Under the pieces are notes generated by a model. The model was not told the origin of the DNA, did no database searches, and saw nothing but the letters and a program-made list of their open reading frames with translations. 64,000 nucleotides of DNA from Legionella sp. Its GTDB lineage: Bacteria > Pseudomonadota > Gammaproteobacteria > Legionellales > Legionellaceae. This document shows, in pieces, positions 3,060 to 55,819 of the stretch. A program made the position numbers and the translations under genes. The stretch spans positions 29,739-93,738 of the forward strand of contig JAOATK010000004.1 in the NCBI GenBank assembly GCA_030158115.1. Reading direction: 5' to 3'. Each line of letters opens with the position of its first letter. Positions within the stretch are counted from its first letter, which is position 1.

Positions 3060-3374
3060 ATATTCACCTAAGTTTCACCGCGCGAAGTATAAAACAACTG
3101 GTTTTAATAATCAACGACCCTGTGTCATTATGTTAAGGATCTTATCCTTCTACCAGCAACGGAAGAAGGAATAACTGTTCGCTTAAGGTAACTAATGTTA
3201 CTTTAAATACGAGTATCTAGTCGTTGCAGAAAATGCACCTGGTTTGAGTGTCTCAAAATTATATTGATTAAAAATTAACCTAATTTGTATCTACTGTCTA
3301 TAATTACTATGTGGAGCTTATTATCCCAACATTGATAGTAAGCGGTGTTTATAAATCTCGTTTAAGGAAATAAT

Positions 3375-6771: not shown

Positions 6772-6774
6772 GAC

Positions 6775-6839
6775 GTAGCCTGGTTCCTTGCAACCGGGGT
6801 TGTCTAGAATGGGACCCTGGTTGCAAGCAACCAGGCTAC
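6775..6839. repeat. REP-like palindromic element, family 1 (GTAGCCTGGTTNCTTGCAACCGGG ... CCCTGGTTGCAAGCAACCAGGCTAC)
   Basis: ~24-bp inverted arms around a 17-nt spacer, located between the convergent rsmI and ORF 6849-8408. Related copies lie at 38823, 40068 and 51435, and as the outer element at 20764. Confidence 0.9.
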
Positions 6840-6848
6840 TAAACTACT

Positions 6849-8408
6849 TTAACTCATAGCTAATGCATTATTTGGTGCGTCTAAAACCGCAACGGGCGGT
6901 TTTGGTTTATTTTCAGGATGTTTATTGTAAGCGCTAAATAGTTCATAACCTAAATAAGCAACTGTTAATGCAATGGCTGCAGGCCAACAAATAGCAAACG
7001 TCGCAATTAATAGGGTTGGCATAAACGTATTTTTTATTAGCTTAAAAATAAAATCATTACGCGCTGTTTGATATTCTTTTAGTGCTAATGCGCGCTCTGT
7101 TGGATTAAAATCCATATGGTCTAAACGGAATTTTTTTTGTTGGTAGTTTGCAAAAGAATCTCCAGTAAAATAAATAGCCGCGGCTAACGTACACACGAAA
7201 AAGCTCGCCACTACCATGCCTGGAGGCGTAAATAGTAAGGCTGCCGAAAACCCTAGCATGAGCAATCCTGCTGCGGAAGCCGCAAAGCATAAACTTGATT
7301 TTTTCGTTTTCCACTCCACTTCCAGTTCGGCCAGCTGTCTGTTTAACACCGCAATGTGCTGATCTCGTTCAGACTGCTTGAGTTCGCTATATTTCATGGG
7401 ATCTTTGTAATCAGCAAGTTCTTGTAAATATTGACTTTTCTTAAAAACATAATTCTTTTTAGCTACCATAAGTCGATACAATAACAAACTCATATCAAAC
7501 CCCAGGAATACCGCTGTAATAATACCTGTTACTGGCGAAGGAATTCGTGAAATTTGATTAAAATTAGTTAAGAAATTCACTGTGGCCCACACCAAATCGT
7601 TAGCAAAATTAAATTGCCTTTTATACAATTCGTGTTTAAAGCGCTCGAAAGTAGTTGATTTTTTTTCCTCTTCACTAGGGAAGAAGGTATGTCGAATTAA
7701 TAAACCCGCATCAATCATAAAACGTGCCAGAAATAAGCCTACGCTAAAATAATTAAGAACCCCATTTGGCGCTTGCAAGGTCGCTATTATTTTATCCGCA
7801 TTAATCTGTGTTCCCAAAGCCACGTTTATTTTATCAAGTAAGTGAATACTTTTTGCAAAAGCAAAACCTGAGGTTAACGTTAGTCGGCAAAAAACCCAAT
7901 AAAGACGGCTTAGGTTAATAAAAGCTACGTACTCTCGTAGTTTTGAAAGATGCCAAGGAGCTTTCATGATGTTTTGAAAACTCTCAATAAAACTTTGTAT
8001 CATTGAATCAACAAAATCTATTTCAGGTTCTTCTGTGGAAAACACACGTGTTTTAATTTTTTCTTTGAGTTGCTTATAATATGCCTCTTTACCTATGGGG
8101 ATATAAGTGCCCTCATTATTTTTTGGAGCAGGAGAATAGGCTTTATAAAAATTTTCTAAAAGGGAAGCACAATAGTAGCAATAGGCCCAGAAGGCATCGC
8201 TATTTTCATCTTTTCTACTCTTTAAAACAGCGAGTATCTGTACGAACTCAGCTTCGAGTTCCATTTGATTATTTAATAAAAAAGAATATTTTTTAGTACC
8301 TACAATTGCATCAGTTGCCCTAATTTTATCGTCGTGATTTCTAATTTGTGAAAAAAACTGATTTTTATCGCTGTGAAAAGCAGAATAAGGACTCATAGTA
8401 CAGCTCAC
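6849..8408 (-). CDS. Hypothetical polytopic membrane protein with a central coiled coil (519 aa), effector-like orphan
   Basis: Long ORF with several hydrophobic helices and a coiled-coil stretch (QHIAVLNRQLAELEVEWKTKK). I recognise no family. Confidence 0.6.
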   Translation of the reverse strand: MSCTMSPYSAFHSDKNQFFSQIRNHDDKIRATDAIVGTKKYSFLLNNQMELEAEFVQILAVLKSRKDENSDAFWAYCYYCASLLENFYKAYSPAPKNNEGTYIPIGKEAYYKQLKEKIKTRVFSTEEPEIDFVDSMIQSFIESFQNIMKAPWHLSKLREYVAFINLSRLYWVFCRLTLTSGFAFAKSIHLLDKINVALGTQINADKIIATLQAPNGVLNYFSVGLFLARFMIDAGLLIRHTFFPSEEEKKSTTFERFKHELYKRQFNFANDLVWATVNFLTNFNQISRIPSPVTGIITAVFLGFDMSLLLYRLMVAKKNYVFKKSQYLQELADYKDPMKYSELKQSERDQHIAVLNRQLAELEVEWKTKKSSLCFAASAAGLLMLGFSAALLFTPPGMVVASFFVCTLAAAIYFTGDSFANYQQKKFRLDHMDFNPTERALALKEYQTARNDFIFKLIKNTFMPTLLIATFAICWPAAIALTVAYLGYELFSAYNKHPENKPKPPVAVLDAPNNALAMS

Positions 8409-8529: not shown

Positions 8530-9963
8530 TTATTTACCTATACAAAAACTAGAAAAAATTCTTCCCAATAAATCGTCAGAGCTGAATTCGCCTGTAATTT
8601 CACATAAAGTGTGATGGGCTAAACGTAGATCTTCTGCTAATAATTCTCCAGCACGATGAGTTGATAATTGATGCTGGCCTGTCGATAATAAATCTTTTGC
8701 TTCATCTAAAGCCTGTAGATGACGTCTTCTAGCAAGAAATTGACCTTCATTGGGTTGGTAGCCGACCACTTGTTTAATTACTTGTTTTAAACCTTCAATT
8801 CCCTCGCCTGATTTAGCGGAGAGATAGACGGTATGATCTTGGACTTTTGCAGGGTAGTGAGTGATATCAATTTTATTAAATACTGTGATAATAGGAACTT
8901 CTTCTGGTAATGCAGCCCTGATTTCTTCAGTGAGCACATGATGCTCTTCTGGATCATTGATATCGACCAGCAATAAAACACAATCGGCTTGTTTTAATTC
9001 CTGCCAGGCACGCTTAATGCCTTCCTTTTCAACAATATCATCTGACTCTCGCAGGCCTGCTGTGTCAATGATATGTAGGGGAATGTCATCTAATAAAATA
9101 TGTTCCCGCATGACATCGCGGGTTGTTCCTGCAATTTCAGTCACAATGGCAATGTCACGACCAGCAAGGCTATTGATTAAAGTAGATTTTCCCGCATTGG
9201 GACGGCCGGCAATCACTAAAGATAGCCCTTCGCGCAAAAGAACACCTTGATTTGCTTGAGATCGAATGGCATTAAGATCAACTAAAATGGCATTTAATAA
9301 ATTAGACACTTTTCCATCGTTAAGAAAATCAATTTCTTCTTCAGGAAAATCAATCGCGGCTTCAACATATAAACGCAAATAAATCAGTTGTTCATTTAAT
9401 TGATTTATTTTTTGCGAAAATTCGCCTTGCAAGGACTTAAATGCCATGCGCGCCGCGGTTTGTGAGCTGGCTTGAATTAAATCCGCAATCGCTTCTGCTT
9501 GAGTTAGGTCAATTTTATCATTTAAAAAGGCACGCTCAGAAAACTCACCAGGTCGAGCCAAACGTGCTCCTATTTGCACACAGGCTTTAGTCAACATATC
9601 CAAAACTATGGGAGAACCATGCGCTTGAATTTCAACTATATCTTCACCAGTAAAAGAATGGGGAGCCTTAAAATAGATCATTAAGCCTTGATCAATTGTT
9701 ACTGCTTGACCATTTCCTACGTCCCGAGGCCTGTCCGCGGGATCCATGGGGCTAGCTAGATCACTGGATCCCACGGGCAAGCCTCGGGACGTAGGGATTG
9801 AGTCAGAGTAAAAAGAACAAAAGGTAGCTAATCGAGGTTTTAAAACTTTATTACCATTTATCACTAAAGCAATAGAATATGCTTTAGGACCAGAGAGTCT
9901 TAAGATGCCTACCCCACCACGTCCTGGTGGGGTAGCTATGGCTACTATCGTATCGGTAACCAT
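8530..9963 (-). CDS. mnmE: tRNA modification GTPase MnmE (TrmE), carrying a 27-aa in-frame insertion
   Basis: [22 protein letters not shown]-terminus, G-domain motifs GRPNAGKST / DTAGLR / NKID, and C-terminal FCIGK. The protein is 477 aa versus about 450 aa typical. Confidence 0.95.
9716..9796. repeat. 81-bp GC-rich palindromic element inserted in-frame in mnmE
   Basis: CCTACGTCCCGAGGC (9716-9730) pairs perfectly with GCCTCGGGACGTAGG (9781-9795). An inner arm pair CCGCGGGATCCA / TGGATCCCACGG has one mismatch. The element encodes about 27 aa ([27 protein letters not shown]) in a loop where E. coli MnmE reads only DADGS. Confidence 0.85.
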
Positions 9964-12199: not shown

Positions 12200-12333
12200 T
12201 AGGCGGACAAACGCTTACGGCCTTTAGCACGACGACGTTTAATCACTAATCTTCCTGCACGAGTTGCCATACGTTCACGAAAACCATGATCGCGTTTACG
12301 TTTTAAGTTACTGGGTTGAAAGGTGCGTTTCAT
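12199..12333 (-). CDS. rpmH: 50S ribosomal protein L34
   Basis: Own translation gives [44 protein letters not shown]. This ORF is too short to appear in the ORF track. Confidence 0.95.
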
Positions 12334-12775
12334 GATGAACCTGTAAATAAAATTATGAGGTTGGCAATGATAGAGAACTTTTTTTCTACTGTCAATTTAG
12401 ATAGTTGATTATTTTTTGGTTATTTTGCATTTTGAGTAAAAAATTGAACAGTATTCATGAAAAAACGATTATCTTGTCGCACTGTAATTATTAATATAAG
12501 TTAATCTTTTAAAAAACTTATTGTTATTATTAGTAAGAACAATACCTGTTTATAACTCTATTTTTACTTTTAAATTCAATTGGTTAAGTCGTGTTAAACG
12601 CTGTTTGTAAAGCTCATTATAGACTGTGTCTAATCTGTTGACTGTTTTACGATTAAAGTTACCCACTGATTTATCTTCATCTTATACGCACTATTTAACC
12701 CTAGTTATACATAGTTAACTTGATCCAAAGTGAGTTATATTTGTTCTTTGTTCATCAGTTATTCTTTTCTTTAGG

Positions 12776-13032
12776 TTCTAAATACTTTCGGTAACGCAGG
12801 CGGTAACGGAAACGTTCACGTGAATGAGCGCTACGCGCAACTTTTAGATTAAATTTTTTGTGTTGCTATTTATAATAAAATAGCTTGGATTTCGTTTGGA
12901 AATATAAAATAAACTTTTTTCATAGCTAATCTGGTTGTAACCAACAAGGTTACCAAATTTAATAAACCGCGCGAAAGCGCTCATTCACGTGAACGTTTCC
13001 GTTACCGCCTGCGTTACCGAAAGTATTTTTCA
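12776..13032. other. Long-hairpin module, copy A (52-bp perfect inverted arms 12781-12832 / 12976-13027 around a 143-bp core)
   Basis: AATACTTTCGGTAACGCAGGCGGTAACGGAAACGTTCACGTGAATGAGCGCT and its exact reverse complement. The core is the reverse complement of the core in copy B. Confidence 0.9.
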
Positions 13033-13354
13033 CTAGCAGGAATCATTGCTTACCCACGTTTGCTAATTATTAATATAAGTTAATCTTTTAAATAACTTAT
13101 TGTTATTATTAGTAAGGGCTATATCTGTTAGTAACCCATATTTTGCTTTTACATTCAACAAGTTAACTCTTGTTAAACGCTGTTTGTAAAGTTAGTTATT
13201 GACTGTGACTAATCTGTACATTCTTTTACGATTAAAGTTACCCACTGATTTATCTTCATCTTATACGCAGTATTTAACACTAGTTATACATAGTTAACTT
13301 GATCCAGAGTGAGTTGTATTTGTTCTTTGTTAAGTAATTCTTTTTTTCTTTAGG

Positions 13355-13612
13355 TGAAAAATACTTTCGGTAACGCAGGCGGTAACGGAAACGTTTACGT
13401 GAATGAGCGCTACGCGCGATTTATTAAATTTGGTAAACGTGTTAGTTGCAAACAGATTAGCTACGAAAAAAGTTTATTTTATATTTCCAAATGAAATCAG
13501 AGCCATTTTATTATGAATAGCAACACAAAAGCATTTAATCTAAAAATTGCGCGTAAGCGCTCATTCACGTAAACGTTTCCGTTACCGCCTGCGTTACCGA
13601 AAGTATTTAAAA
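13355..13612. other. Long-hairpin module, copy B, in inverted orientation relative to copy A (arms 13360-13411 / 13556-13607)
   Basis: The arms are identical to copy A except for one compensated change (GTTCACG to GTTTACG on the left, CGTGAAC to CGTAAAC on the right). The 144-bp core is about 88% identical to rc(core A). The 5 bp outside the arms also look flipped. Confidence 0.9.
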
Positions 13613-13823
13613 CCCGCAGGAATCATTACTTACCCACTGATTTATCTCCATCTTATACGCACTATTTAACCCTACTTATACATAGTTAACTTGATCCAAA
13701 GTGAGTTTTTTTGTCCTGCGCAAAGACGAATTATTAGCCATTTTATTAAAATGGCTAAAGTCCAGTACTTCCAACTCACGCGTTTTTATATATAATCTTG
13801 GAATGTATTTAAGGGATATCAAT

Positions 13824-15776
13824 ATGAAAAAATGGAATTTAGTTAACAAAATACTTTTTGGCGCATGGGCTTTACTGACCATGACCCAGACTTATGCCGG
13901 AATACCCCTTTGGACGTTTGAGCCGCTTACTGCAACCACAATCAGTGTTACAGCAACTGGTACGGCAAACATCAAGTACCGAGTTACCAATCAATCGAAA
14001 AAATCACATACCTTGTCGATGCGACTGATACCAGGTATTACTCAAGAGACAACAGCAGGCTATTGCTCTAGTCCCTTTGTTTTGGCTTATCAGCAATCAT
14101 GCACCTTAGGCTTATCAGTGAATGGAGGTTCCTTATCAGGAAATGTGGTTGGAGGGCCCATAGTATGCCAAGGAGGCAATCCTTTGCAATGTTATCAACC
14201 AAGCCAGGCAAATAGTTTAAATATTACTAAAATTTCAAGCTTTACAGTAGGAGGTACCGTTACGGGTCTTACAGAAACGGTGACCCTGTTAAACAATAAT
14301 ACGAACTCAACTCTGATTAGCAGGGATGGCTCGTTTACTTTTTCAACTCCCATTGCGAATGGTAGCACCTATTCAGTGACGGTAGGAACCCAACCGCCAG
14401 ACCAAACCTGTACCGTATTCAATGGCACAGGCACCGTAAATGGTGCTGATGTGACCAATGTCGTAGTGACCTGCTCTACGAATGCTTACTATGTAGGAGG
14501 TACTATTTCGGGTCTTACAGGAACAGTGGTCTTGTTAAACAATGACACGAACCCCACCGCGAGAAGCACGAACGATGGTTTTATCTTTTCAATTCCGATT
14601 GCAGATGGTAGTCCTTACTCAGTGACAGTAGCAACCCAACCTGTAGATCAAACTTGTTCAGTAGCTAATGGTACTGGCATCATGAGTGGTGCTGATGTGG
14701 ATGATGTCGTAGTAACTTGCTCTGCGGATACTTACAAGGTTGGAGGTAACATTACGGGTCTTGCTCAAGGAGAAACAGTGACTTTGTTAAACAATGGCAC
14801 GGATGCTACTTTGTTTAGCGCGAACGGTGCTTTTGCCTTCCCAACTGAGATTGCAGATGGTAGCCCTTACGCGGTTACGGTGAAAACCCAACCTATAGCT
14901 CAAACGTGTACAGTAGTGAACGGCACTGGCACCATAACAGGTGGAAATGTAACCAATGTCGCAGTGACTTGCGTTACTCAGAACACAACCCTACGGGTAA
15001 GTGCTACGGGAACTATTCCTGTTAATAATGGTACTAACACGCTCACTGTAACCAATATCGGAACAACCTTTGCTGCGCTAAAAGTTCATGCCGTATTGCC
15101 TAGTGGTTGGACTACTAATGTAACACAAAATGTCGCAGATTGTGATGAAATAGCACCGGGTGATTCGTGTGGATTAGTATTTTCTTCAACCCAACCATAT
15201 GTAGCCCAAGGAAATATTACGATTACGGGGGATAACATTACCTCGCCACCAACAACAGCACTTGCATTTACTGCTACTGCTAGTAATTATTTAATTTGGA
15301 ATGTAACACCCATATCAGTAAACGTCATTGGTACGTTTAACTCGTTAACACCAGGGGCATTGCCGTGGGGGTCTTTGGCTCCACCAGCTGGGGCTACAAG
15401 TAATACGGACGGCAAAACTAATACAACTAATATTGTTACTGCGCTAGGAGTCGGCAACTATGCAGCATATTTCTGCTATAGCACTGATCCGCTAGGTTCG
15501 TGGTATTTACCTGCGATTTGTGAAATGAGCGAATCATCATATGCTGGATGTCCTACTATTAACAATATTGATACCAACTTGGTTCAGCTTGGTTTTGGCG
15601 GACTTTCGGAACCATCAACCAACATCTTCTGGAGTTCTACCGAGATGACAGGGTTTGGCGATATCAACGCATTTGATCAGACCTACATCACGGGTGGCAA
15701 GAGCACGGTGTATTATAATCTTAAGGTCGTGCCAAGATATGTTATTTGTTCTCTGAGTTTAAATCCTTTTCCTTGA
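13824..15776 (+). CDS. Secreted Lcl-like surface protein: signal peptide, Cys-containing N-domain, three ~83-aa beta-sandwich-like repeats, C-terminal DUF1566 (Lcl C-terminal) domain
   Basis: Start taken at ATG 13824 (AAGGGA SD; MKKWNLVNKILFGAWALLTMTQTYAG signal peptide). Three repeats match VGGxxTGL..TVxLLNN..(8-9 aa)..G.F.F...IA.GS.Y.VTV.TQP..QTC.V.NGTG...G..V..V.VTC. The C-terminus WYLPAICEM...IFWSSTEM resembles DUF1566. Confidence 0.8.
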   Translation: MKKWNLVNKILFGAWALLTMTQTYAGIPLWTFEPLTATTISVTATGTANIKYRVTNQSKKSHTLSMRLIPGITQETTAGYCSSPFVLAYQQSCTLGLSVNGGSLSGNVVGGPIVCQGGNPLQCYQPSQANSLNITKISSFTVGGTVTGLTETVTLLNNNTNSTLISRDGSFTFSTPIANGSTYSVTVGTQPPDQTCTVFNGTGTVNGADVTNVVVTCSTNAYYVGGTISGLTGTVVLLNNDTNPTARSTNDGFIFSIPIADGSPYSVTVATQPVDQTCSVANGTGIMSGADVDDVVVTCSADTYKVGGNITGLAQGETVTLLNNGTDATLFSANGAFAFPTEIADGSPYAVTVKTQPIAQTCTVVNGTGTITGGNVTNVAVTCVTQNTTLRVSATGTIPVNNGTNTLTVTNIGTTFAALKVHAVLPSGWTTNVTQNVADCDEIAPGDSCGLVFSSTQPYVAQGNITITGDNITSPPTTALAFTATASNYLIWNVTPISVNVIGTFNSLTPGALPWGSLAPPAGATSNTDGKTNTTNIVTALGVGNYAAYFCYSTDPLGSWYLPAICEMSESSYAGCPTINNIDTNLVQLGFGGLSEPSTNIFWSSTEMTGFGDINAFDQTYITGGKSTVYYNLKVVPRYVICSLSLNPFP

Positions 15777-16663: not shown

Positions 16664-16796
16664 ATCAAAAGTAGCCTGGATGCAGCGAAGCGTAATCCGG
16701 GAGTTCCCGCGAAGCTGCTCAATTGCTATAATTAAGGTGCCATGCTTTGCATGGTCTTCCCGGATTTCGCTTCGCTGCATCCAGGCTACTTTTGAT
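16664..16796. repeat. REP-like palindromic element, family 2 (ATCAAAAGTAGCCTGGATGCAGCGAAGCGTAATCCGGGA ... rc)
   Basis: 39-bp arms with one mismatch around a ~55-nt centre that contains its own small hairpin (CCATGC-TT-GCATGG). Confidence 0.9.
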
Positions 16797-20763: not shown

Positions 20764-20951
20764 TAGCCTGGTTGCCTGTAACTAACGATGCTTACTTAAG
20801 GGCTTTACGCTCTTGTAGCCTGGATGCAGCGCAGCGTAATCCGGGAATTCGGTGCCACTGATCCCGGATTGCGCTGCGCTGCATCCAGGCTACAAGGGTA
20901 TAGACGATTACTAAAACTCATTAAGTAAGCGTCATCAGTGCAAGCAACCAG
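20764..20951. repeat. Outer REP-like element (family-1-like ends TAGCCTGGTTGC...GCAAGCAACCAG, imperfect arms) hosting a nested element
   Basis: The left arm TAGCCTGGTTGCCTGTAACTAACGATGCTTACTTAAG pairs imperfectly with CTTAAGTAAGCGTCATCAGTGCAAGCAACCAG-type sequence on the right. Element 20815-20893 sits in its centre. Confidence 0.7.
20815..20893. repeat. Family-2 REP-like element nested inside the 20764-20951 element
   Basis: GTAGCCTGGATGCAGCGCAGCGTAATCCGGGA ... TCCCGGATTGCGCTGCGCTGCATCCAGGCTAC: 32-bp arms with one mismatch. Confidence 0.9.
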
Positions 20952-23544: not shown

Positions 23545-23548
23545 ATGC

Positions 23549-23629
23549 TAGCTTGGATGGTGCGTTGCGCAAACTGGGAATTCGGGCTACTGATCCCGGA
23601 TTGCGCGACACTCCACTCATCCAGGCTAT
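23549..23629. repeat. Degenerate family-2 REP-like element downstream of gyrB
   Basis: TAGCTTGGATGGTGCGTTGCGCAAACTGGGAATTCGGGCTACTGATCCCGGATTGCGCGACACTCCACTCATCCAGGCTA. It is recognisably related to 20815-20893 but has many mismatches. Confidence 0.7.
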
Positions 23630-38822: not shown

Positions 38823-38893
38823 AAAGTAGCCTGGTTGCTTGCAACCGGGATCACTTGTACCAAACCCCGGTTGCAAGCAACCAGGCTACTTTG
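38823..38893. repeat. REP-like element, family 1
   Basis: AAAGTAGCCTGGTTGCTTGCAACCGGG-17 nt-CCCGGTTGCAAGCAACCAGGCTACTTT: perfect 27-bp arms. Confidence 0.92.
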
Positions 38894-38916
38894 CTCTTGC
38901 ACTTAGGTTAAACCGA

Positions 38917-40044: not shown

Positions 40045-40067
40045 TTTGGGAATGTGGTGCTATTGAT

Positions 40068-40134
40068 CCCGGTTGCAAGCAACCAGGCTACTTTGTCATT
40101 ATGAGTACCGTAGCCTGGTTGCTTGCAACCGGGG
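40068..40134. repeat. Family-1 REP arms in inside-out arrangement (CCCGGTTGCAAGCAACCAGGCTAC-18 nt-GTAGCCTGGTTGCTTGCAACCGGGG)
   Basis: The same 24-bp arms as the other family-1 copies, but here the GTAGCC ends face the spacer. Confidence 0.85.
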
Positions 40135-40152
40135 TCGTTTAACTCGCCACAC

Positions 40153-51431: not shown

Positions 51432-51434
51432 AGA

Positions 51435-51505
51435 GTAGCCTGGTTGCTTGCAACCAGGACTTCCTGTAGGGCTGAAAAAATCCCGGTTGCAAGCAACCAG
51501 GCTAC
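51435..51505. repeat. REP-like element, family 1
   Basis: GTAGCCTGGTTGCTTGCAACC...CCCGGTTGCAAGCAACCAGGCTAC, located between the convergent rapA and the FGase-like gene. Confidence 0.9.
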
Positions 51506-51521
51506 GGGTATTCGCGTTGAG

Positions 51522-54884: not shown

Positions 54885-55107
54885 TTATCCCTCTTTGGAT
54901 TCAATCATGAGTATGATTATAGGTGGCCATAATCATACAACAAAGCTAGTTCTAACTTAGACTTGGAGAAGACGTTTGTCAAATAGGTTTTTTATGTTTT
55001 TAATTTGGATCTAGGGCAGAAGGGTGCTCTGTTTCAAAGCTGATGAAAGCGAAGATTAGAATGGATGCTAGGTTAAAAAAATAAAGTGGGGTCTTGTCTT
55101 GAATAAG

Positions 55108-55147
55108 TAAGTCTGGGTAGCCTGGATTAATCCAGGCTACCCAGACT
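55108..55147 (-). terminator. REP-like hairpin AAGTCTGGGTAGCCTGGA-TTAA-TCCAGGCTACCCAGACTT downstream of the OMP gene
   Basis: Perfect 18-bp stem containing the GTAGCCTGG core shared with the other REP families. Confidence 0.7.
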
Positions 55148-55153
55148 TATTGT

Positions 55154-55819
55154 TTAAAATTTATAAATCAAGGAAAGCTCACCAGCTAAGGTGCTAAATG
55201 TGTTTTTATAAATCTGAACCGTGCCAGCTGTTAAACCTAGACCAGTGTTCTTTTGAGATCCATAAATATCATAAATCGCATCGACCCTCATAGAGAAGCT
55301 TTCGTTAATAACCGTAGTAAATCCTAATCCAGTTTGAAAACCACTTTTGTTATAACCTGTTTTAATAAGGCCGTACACGCCATTATCAGAAATATTAAAT
55401 TTTCCATTGGTATACCCTAAAATAAGATGGCCAGAGGTCATTGGAGTAAATGCGTATTTAGGTAAAACACGTACACCAAGATCATAGCTTTGGTTGTGAT
55501 GATACGTATAAGGTGAATGGGTAATTGCTGCGTTTAACCCAGTTGCATCAGCGAAAAATTCGAGCGCTAAGCCAAGAGTATCATTAAAGCCATATTCATA
55601 ACCCACATAGCCACCACCAATAATTCCTATAGCACCCAATTGATGCGTTTCAGGTGAGGAATAATGCGTTTCTTTATCAACAAAACCCGCTGTTCCAATC
55701 TCTCCAGCTACATAAAATCCATTACGAATAGTGCCTGCAGACTCCCCCATTGTGCCAGCAAATGCACCTGTCCAAGTCAATAAAAGAGCGCTTGTTATTG
55801 TTTTTAACATGTTATTCAT
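55154..55819 (-). CDS. Outer-membrane beta-barrel protein (OmpA-like 8-strand / Opa-type), 221 aa
   Basis: Signal peptide ...GAFAG, alternating beta-strand pattern and a C-terminal ...LSLIYKF with terminal Phe. Confidence 0.75.
   Translation of the reverse strand: MNNMLKTITSALLLTWTGAFAGTMGESAGTIRNGFYVAGEIGTAGFVDKETHYSSPETHQLGAIGIIGGGYVGYEYGFNDTLGLALEFFADATGLNAAITHSPYTYHHNQSYDLGVRVLPKYAFTPMTSGHLILGYTNGKFNISDNGVYGLIKTGYNKSGFQTGLGFTTVINESFSMRVDAIYDIYGSQKNTGLGLTAGTVQIYKNTFSTLAGELSLIYKF

Follow-up and report, generated by a model that had tools for sequence, protein, structure and literature searches.

A palindromic REP dimer in frame in mnmE of an uncultured Legionella and the Legionellales repeat family to which it belongs

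Results

The mnmE locus and the palindrome within it

We analysed a 64,000-nt stretch of DNA (the window) from an uncultured Legionella sp. represented by a metagenome-assembled genome (MAG; GCA_030158115.1, contig JAOATK010000004.1, positions 29,739–93,738 of the forward strand), in which a GC-rich palindrome of the repetitive extragenic palindromic (REP) type lies in frame inside mnmE, the gene for a tRNA uridine-34 modification GTPase. The window is AT-rich (38.4% GC), and mnmE stands in the conserved cluster rnpA-yidD-yidC-mnmE on its minus strand. The product is 74–87% identical to MnmE of other Legionella, matches MnmE in the Protein Data Bank (PDB) by sequence and by fold, and preserves every column that is invariant across Legionella MnmE in a 62-sequence alignment. 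The gene and the features within it are as follows.

8530–9963, minus strand: mnmE, tRNA uridine-34 modification GTPase, 477 amino acids (aa), intact (open reading frame (ORF) list, orthologue identity, PDB matches)
9697–9715, minus strand: 19 nt, AAATGGTCAAGCAGTAACA in gene sense, which encode NGQAVT and complete a 99-nt indel (DNA alignment with four insert-free mnmE genes)
9716–9795, minus strand: 80-nt GC-rich palindrome formed by two REP-type units arranged head-to-head, in frame in mnmE (sequence, search, folding z = −10)
9716–9747, plus strand: REP unit 1, with CCTAC head, stem GTCCCGAGG, loop CCTGT, stem CCGCGGGAT and tail CCAT (nhmmer E = 5.8e-6)
9748–9763, no strand: 16-nt spacer between the REP units, GGGGCTAGCTAGATCA (read from the sequence)
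9764–9795, minus strand: REP unit 2, inverted, with CCTAC head, stem GTCCCGAGG, loop CTTGC, stem CCGTGGGAT and tail CCAG (nhmmer E = 2.6e-5)

An earlier note on this DNA had described a hairpin-capable palindrome of 81 bp at 9716–9796, with an outer and an inner pair of arms and a GC content far above that of its surroundings. Both pairs were found, the outer as CCTACGTCCCGAGGC at 9716–9730 with its exact complement at 9781–9795, and the inner as GGGATCCA and TGGATCCC (8 nt, exact), and the two 45-nt halves are 80% complementary overall. The GC content is 67%, against 38% for the window. The palindrome itself therefore stands as described, but its length and coordinates are corrected to 80 nt and 9716–9795. 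Folding of the sense-strand RNA (101 nt around the palindrome) gave −68.6 kcal/mol, compared with −32.4 ± 3.6 for shuffled sequences (z = −10.1, with 0 of 200 shuffles as stable), and folding of the region as DNA gave −35 kcal/mol (z = −8.3). Inspection of the sequence 3' of the hairpin found no U-tract, so it is not an intrinsic terminator, and a search of the whole window against Rfam at gathering thresholds returned zero matches, intron families included.

The two units were scored with an nhmmer profile built from 208 arms of the repeat family described below. The copy in mnmE has outer ends CCTAC...GTAGG and inner ends GGGAT-CCA, and in each arm 8 of the 9 stem positions pair, with one A-G mismatch apiece. 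Compared with the 26-nt core of the family, REP unit 1 carries 2 mismatches and REP unit 2 carries 3. The same C-to-A change (giving CCCGAGG) is present in both arms, with pairing between the arms kept, and two transitions yield G-U pairs rather than C-A mismatches in the sense RNA. Owing to these changes, 30 of the 31 stem positions of the hairpin pair in the message, leaving one internal mismatch. In a metagenome scan, the CCCGAGG variant was seen at three loci, in a single arm each time, so the double change looks private to the copy in mnmE; a subfamily sharing the variant was considered and rejected on the same observation.

Insertion into mnmE and reading frame

The palindrome reads as 27 aa without a stop in the only one of the three frames on the mnmE strand that is open across the element (PTSRGL...). 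The earlier count of 27 stop-free codons was thus correct, but these codons lie at 9715–9795, and the full indel is larger. Alignment at the DNA level with insert-free orthologues gave a difference of 99 nt, or 33 codons, at ~9697–9795, made up of the 80-nt palindrome and 19 further nt. Four insert-free relatives read TCTGAYTC(A/T)TT|AATTGATCAAGG at the insertion point, where the window has 99 nt more. Searching the flanks of other copies gave no match to the 19 nt, nor was the target convincingly duplicated. They either arrived with the element or represent an older, lineage-specific extension of the loop, and since loop length varies among Legionella, they may predate the insertion.

Among the best 120 MnmE protein matches, all of the Legionella type, lengths are 443–467 aa, with one exception of 555 aa (P0118, discussed below); an identical 477-aa protein, on record in an NCBI source, is also among these 120. 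The segment is unique to the MnmE of the window in alignments of 18 and of 62 sequences, being present in 0 of 61 aligned orthologues. Together with the empty sites in the DNA of the nearest relatives, this upholds the earlier suggestion of a lineage-specific insertion, which on these alignments would have occurred after the split from the nearest sequenced relatives. An identical 100-nt stretch occurs in four contigs that were assembled independently from different Sequence Read Archive (SRA) runs, and thus it is not an assembly artefact. The continuous frame suggests that the segment is retained in both mRNA and protein.

Position in the MnmE protein

The HMMER match to PDB entry 9hip (E. 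coli-type MnmE of the MnmE-MnmG complex, 454 aa) is split, covering query residues 3–51 and 88–477. The insert therefore lies in the 36 residues between and replaces residues 52–56 of the 9hip chain, a five-residue β-hairpin turn, which agrees with the earlier placement of the insertion at a short loop of the N-terminal domain. In an AlphaFold2 model (62-sequence input), residues 57–84 form coil with a predicted local distance difference test (pLDDT) score <50, between strands 46–53 and 88–98. The model matches MnmE structures, and its N-terminal domain alone had a TM-score of 0.82 to 1xzq_B. The insert is accordingly modelled as a loop at a hairpin turn, predicted to be disordered. The receiving turn itself varies in length across Legionella (alignment columns 54–90): the Fluoribacter group has 8–10 aa more, and in one MnmE (P0057) the same turn is lengthened by 21 aa of unrelated sequence.

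A repeat family in Legionellales

The earlier note had raised the prospect of other copies, including copies within coding sequences. Scanning a genome collection with a pattern derived from the core shared by the mnmE copy and the DNA of P0118, and requiring one exact arm, we found at least 119 loci, several of them in frame in real genes; the window has no further copy. About 110 loci among the matches listed are from Legionella, Legionellales or Coxiellaceae. Hosts among these matches include L. bozemanae, L. shakespearei, L. anisa, L. resiliens, L. massiliensis and further Legionella species, MAGs of Legionellales and Coxiellaceae, and MAGs of Gammaproteobacteria with the same full element. 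About 9 of the matches listed come from unrelated phyla and lack the palindrome, consistent with the estimated number of chance matches. Single genomes carry many copies (at least 10 loci in L. shakespearei, at least 7 in L. resiliens and at least 13 in the MAG MFD01633).

From the matches listed we extracted 105 dimeric copies; of their 208 arms, 120 match the 26-nt consensus exactly. The left arm of the family consensus reads CCTAC, CCGTC or CCGCC, then GTCCCGCGG, CTTGT, CCGCGGGAT and CCAG, and is followed by a spacer and its mirror image. The copy in mnmE is 85% identical over 80 nt to copies from L. massiliensis (L046) and from a Lac Pavin MAG (L023), a match that extends into the spacer (GATCTAGCTA); its spacer is partly common to the copies at L046, L041 and L023.

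Each family unit has a 4-nt head (CTAC, CGTC or CGCC), a 9-bp GC-rich stem, a 5-nt loop (CTTGT) and a CCA tail, and two units are set head-to-head around the spacer. Among 95 distinct arms, 93.5% of cells pair and 6 of the 9 stem pairs have changed on both sides. Compensatory cells number 35; shuffles give 5.0 ± 1.9, with 0 of 500 as high, and slid controls give far fewer. Covariation thus supports the hairpin as the conserved unit of the family. Among the 7-nt heads of family arms, the CGTC type (xxGTCGT) is the commonest, with CTAC and CGCC next. The heads differ by lineage on the same REP body: most named Legionella have CTAC (GTAG-type), many Legionellales MAGs have CGTC, and L. shakespearei has CGCC. 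Within the family, the GTAG and CGTC tags are two substitutions apart.

Direct repeats flanking 103 dimers do not exceed shuffled expectation (79 dimers have 0 nt, 16 have 1 nt, 5 have 2 nt and 3 have 3 nt), and no target-site duplication was found at the copy in mnmE. An outer inverted repeat, ATTAAGTTAAG ... CTTAACTTAAT, is present on at least one side of ~14 of the 103 dimers; the mnmE copy lacks it. ORFs lying between paired elements were considered as REPtron candidates, but neither encodes a transposase (nlpD at L006 and an L,D-transpeptidase at L028).

Family copies within genes

Most family copies appear to be intergenic, with examples in the surE-nlpD-rpoS and ettA-ldt spacers. An ORF that reaches at least 120 nt beyond the dimer on both sides spans only 11 of the 105 dimers, and the intragenic share is ~5–10% of these dimers, the mnmE copy being among the exceptions. 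Five in-frame cases have gene assignments with Pfam support. In AstA, the insert splits the domain and adds a 27-aa peptide in the same frame as in mnmE. In a polyketide synthase of Legionella sp. PATHC038, the copy lies in the linker between acyl carrier protein and ketosynthase (ACP-KS linker). The remaining three are a 967-aa ATPase-domain protein of L. shakespearei, an RlmI-like methyltransferase and a CheR-TPR protein, where the copy is in the linker.

Two further genes contain more than one unit. A 365-aa MutY from the metagenome scan (L129, JGI Ga0075163_10017768) carries two in-frame inserts, at ~3080–3160 and further downstream; these are a single REP unit near the helix-hairpin-helix region and a full dimer of 27 aa. 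Repair genes often house intragenic REPs (Di Nocera, De Gregorio and Rocco, 2013; PMC3733652), which this mutY echoes. The 555-aa Legionella MnmE mentioned above (P0118; L001 3124–3480, JGI 3300062805, Ga0604603_0002486) carries a 111-aa (333-nt) in-frame insert in its G domain. This insert is built of two tandem 150-nt units (97% identical), each with a REP dimer of this family, and two 27-nt repeats. The inverted repeat CACTGCCATTAAGTTAAGC brackets it, and this is the outer repeat also present on at least one side of ~14 of the 103 dimers. Since in-frame copies occur in several real genes, in-frame survival at permissive places recurs for the family.

A separate observation concerns start-codon calls. 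At L006 (1935–2816), a REP dimer just upstream of a gene produces a false N-terminal extension in the ORF call: nlpD seems to start MLFAKKLSQNYVVPRLVRGIH..., and its true start is likely to be the lipoprotein signal further in. Gene calls next to copies throughout the family are exposed to the same error.

Other features of the window

Two other families of GTAG-headed REP dimers are much commoner in the window than the family of the mnmE element. The first, GTAGCCTGGTTGCTTGCAACCGGG, occurs four times (6774–6843, 38823–38896, 40055–40143 and 51434–51509), and the second, GTAGCCTGGATGCAGCGAAGCGTAATCCGGGA, three times (16664–16796, 20812–20896 and 23548–23615). An additional palindrome with a GTAGCC motif lies at 55099–55158.

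Between mnmE and rsmI, on the minus strand, is a 519-aa ORF (6849–8408) with no Pfam family on record. Relatives have counterparts of 515–520 aa at the same position, and another relative has two shorter ORFs there. The ~1.5 kb at 12200–13712, which adjoin rnpA/rpmH, contain no ORF of at least 90 aa and are packed with long repeats, some direct (300 nt long and 579 nt apart) and some inverted (53–118 nt, 90–100% identity). The usual gene order would place dnaA beside rnpA/rpmH; in the window it is not adjacent. A 691-aa ORF at 13701–15776 contains three tandem 246-nt coding repeats (14247–14990, 64–74% identity), each with a VGG.ITGL...TV.LLNN motif, and resembles a repeat-domain surface protein.

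Discussion

Origin and fate of the insertion

We consider it highly probable that the segment in mnmE is one copy of a small, non-autonomous Legionellales family of REP dimers, inserted in frame, translated and carried as a tolerated passenger. A REP dimer would have landed in the β-hairpin turn of the MnmE N-terminal domain after the split from the nearest sequenced relatives, perhaps mobilised in the form of a single-stranded hairpin, the enzyme being a tyrosine HUH transposase resembling the REP-associated tyrosine transposases (RAYTs) or a different one. The inserted length is a multiple of three and is read in the only open frame, so that the gene would have stayed open, and the element would then be translated as a Pro/Ser/Gly/Asp/Arg-rich and probably disordered surface loop, which MnmE appears to tolerate. 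The insert would be a presumably neutral passenger and not an adaptation: insertions that break genes would be lost, and a few in-frame ones in permissive loops or linkers would survive. The 2 and 3 arm mismatches suggest that the copy has drifted since landing.

Several points weigh against this account. Of the 99 inserted nt, 19 are not explained by the element, and no second copy of it was found in the 64-kb window, whether by exact search with up to 3 mismatches, BLAST at word size 7, a regular expression allowing 5 substitutions or nhmmer with the 208-arm profile. The family sample is biased towards conserved copies, since the scan pattern needed one exact arm. The AlphaFold2 model of the window MnmE is moderately confident overall (mean pLDDT 70.9). 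REP and REPIN elements are linked in the literature to single-strand HUH tyrosine transposases (RAYTs); a REPIN-RAYT system has one such cognate Y1 HUH gene, in single copy, in the same genome, usually with REPs at its sides. A tblastn search for a RAYT-like gene, made with an E. coli RayT query and a weak test, gave nothing below E = 0.3 in ~1 Mb of loci plus the window, and no dedicated transposase is known for CGTC REPs (Di Nocera et al, 2013; PMC3733652). For these last two reasons, we infer the mobilising enzyme and do not report it as a result.

The insertion might instead have inactivated or crippled MnmE, leaving a young pseudogene that still looks intact, which we judge unlikely. The N-terminal domain of MnmE is its dimerisation and folate-binding domain, where an insert of 33 residues could do harm, and loss of mnmE is tolerated in some bacteria. 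However, the ORF is open over 477 codons and the invariant columns of 62 Legionella orthologues are kept, and the element has itself diverged (2 + 3 arm mismatches, 85% identity to the nearest copies) with neither stop nor frameshift. The turn that received it is also one that differs in length among Legionella (the Fluoribacter group has 8–10 aa extra there, and P0057 has 21 aa), and another Legionella MnmE, P0118, tolerates an insert of 111 aa.

It is improbable that the hairpin was co-opted and is kept by selection, either as an mRNA structure (a translational pause, or a site for RNase III or RNase E) or as a protein loop with a new function. What speaks for selection is the near-perfect stem in the sense RNA (30 pairs and one internal mismatch), in which the C-to-A change shared by both arms keeps pairing and the transitions give G-U rather than C-A. 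These amount to just one compensatory pair and two wobble pairs, which could easily arise by chance and give no sufficient ground for claiming that selection acts on the RNA. The hairpin is no intrinsic terminator and matches no Rfam family, and related copies lie in unrelated genes and mostly between genes, as those of a passenger would.

[quoted passage not shown] Yet direct repeats beside the 103 dimers equal shuffled expectation, and this absence of target-site duplications, which fits REP/REPIN elements, leads us to reject a transposase-derived MITE as very improbable. What is conserved, moreover, is the hairpin inside each arm, whose 4-nt head and CCA tail are the signature of a REP and not of a terminal repeat for transposase binding, and the copy in mnmE is without the outer repeat. 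Finally, it is hardly credible that the segment stems from faulty assembly or binning, or that it is taken out of the transcript or the protein as an intron, intein or bypass element: the source is metagenome-assembled and strong palindromes can mislead assemblers, but four independently assembled contigs share the same 100 nt and the identical 477-aa protein is in an NCBI source, while 27–33 aa are too short for an intein, 80–99 nt are far under the size of group I/II introns, and in several other genes the frame runs on through homologous copies.

Beyond the tolerated passenger that we favour, a broader and doubtful extension is that this CCGCGG-stem family is still active. Some enzyme that is not a classical RAYT would move it, with heads switching between GTAG and CGTC and so linking the two superfamilies, and the family would repeatedly seed disordered loops of housekeeping proteins (mnmE twice, mutY twice, astA and rlmI), some of these loops or mRNA hairpins being selectively retained. 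If so, the family would offer a tractable model for the origin and tolerance of insertions like the Rickettsia palindromic elements (RPEs), as several hosts are culturable Legionella.

Significance

In-frame and presumably translated palindromic repeats are thus not confined to Rickettsia and occur in conserved housekeeping genes of Legionella as well. The analysis defines a previously uncharacterised family of REP dimers that spans Legionellaceae and Coxiellaceae. For annotation, peptides of the family recur in both real and spurious ORFs, where they can mislead homology searches and start-codon calls. For evolutionary work, the insertions mark permissive loops and linkers, and whether a given site carries one is a clean phylogenetic marker. 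Two cultured hosts with intragenic copies (L. shakespearei DSM 23087, in the gene on NZ_KB892400.1 at L116, and Legionella sp. PATHC038, in the polyketide synthase at L085) make translation and tolerance testable, which is hard in Rickettsia. The understanding of MnmE and of REP biology is unchanged by the result.

Comparison with known systems

The element resembles the GTAG and CGTC REPs (Di Nocera et al, 2013; PMC3733652) and the REPINs (Bertels and Rainey, 2011; PMC3116915) in its 4-nt head, 8–9-bp GC-rich stem, 4–5-nt loop and CCA tail. As with the GTAG and CGTC REPs, units form head-to-head dimers that can fold into one long hairpin (their spacers being 20–100 nt or shorter), and in the genomes scanned copies are dispersed, multi-copy and mainly intergenic, with occasional intragenic dimers encoding 20–30 aa; known REPs of this type often sit just downstream of genes. 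Unlike in that survey, which keeps GTAG and CGTC as separate superfamilies, a single Legionellales body carries CTAC (GTAG), CGTC and CGCC heads, and no RAYT has so far been linked to the family. Neither the text nor the supplements of the survey contain the string of this family (stem TCCCGCGG, loop CTTGT), and Legionella is unmentioned in the paper (PMC3733652); our comparison with the REPs of its supplement and with QMITE2 was made by description and architecture.

The dRS3 (CGTC-1) repeats of Neisseria share a CGTC head, a GC-rich stem ending ...GGGAAT / ...GGGAT, and a CCA tail, and differ in having an 8-bp stem and 4-nt loop instead of 9 bp and 5 nt. They cluster in arrays and serve as integration sites for phage and IS; to our knowledge, no in-frame insertions of dRS3 have been reported.

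The earlier note had likened the insertion to RPEs. RPE-1 to RPE-8 are likewise palindromic repeats of an intracellular bacterium that lie in frame in protein genes, including housekeeping genes, and add a peptide; RPE-1 is longer than the Legionellales element. The analogy is apt, as RPE-4 and RPE-6 are classed as CGTC-tagged REPs with the same architecture (Di Nocera et al, 2013; PMC3733652), and it is drawn on architecture; the hosts of RPEs are Alphaproteobacteria, whereas those of the mnmE family are Gammaproteobacteria (Legionellales), in which intragenic copies are a small minority.

Within the same order, the GTAG REP/QMITE2 of Coxiella burnetii forms REP-like hairpins of ~83–100 nt with a predicted energy of ~−68 kcal/mol, and its longer versions carry outer inverted repeats (Wachter et al, 2018; PMC5896051), a likeness again drawn on description. 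In contrast to the Legionellales family, in which none are seen, full-length QMITE2 has 7–11-nt direct repeats. Both QMITE1 and QMITE2 overlap ORFs (Wachter et al, 2018; PMC5896051), and in C. burnetii further intragenic REPs overlap ORFs or sit in frame within them, such as an extension of enhC and a 26-aa insert in CBU_1229 (PMC5896051; PMC3733652, Additional file 3), with peptides (SPYEAQRNTG..., VIPACAGMT) from other REP families. A 2024 census reported computed MITEs in 99.6% of Legionella genomes, without description. In the literature, we found no description of this REP family or of in-frame palindromes in Legionella. In-frame REP dimers encoding 20–30 aa are, however, documented in many bacteria, including C. 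burnetii of the same order (Di Nocera et al, 2013; PMC3733652), and the phenomenon, now extended to mnmE of Legionella, is therefore less novel than had been supposed.

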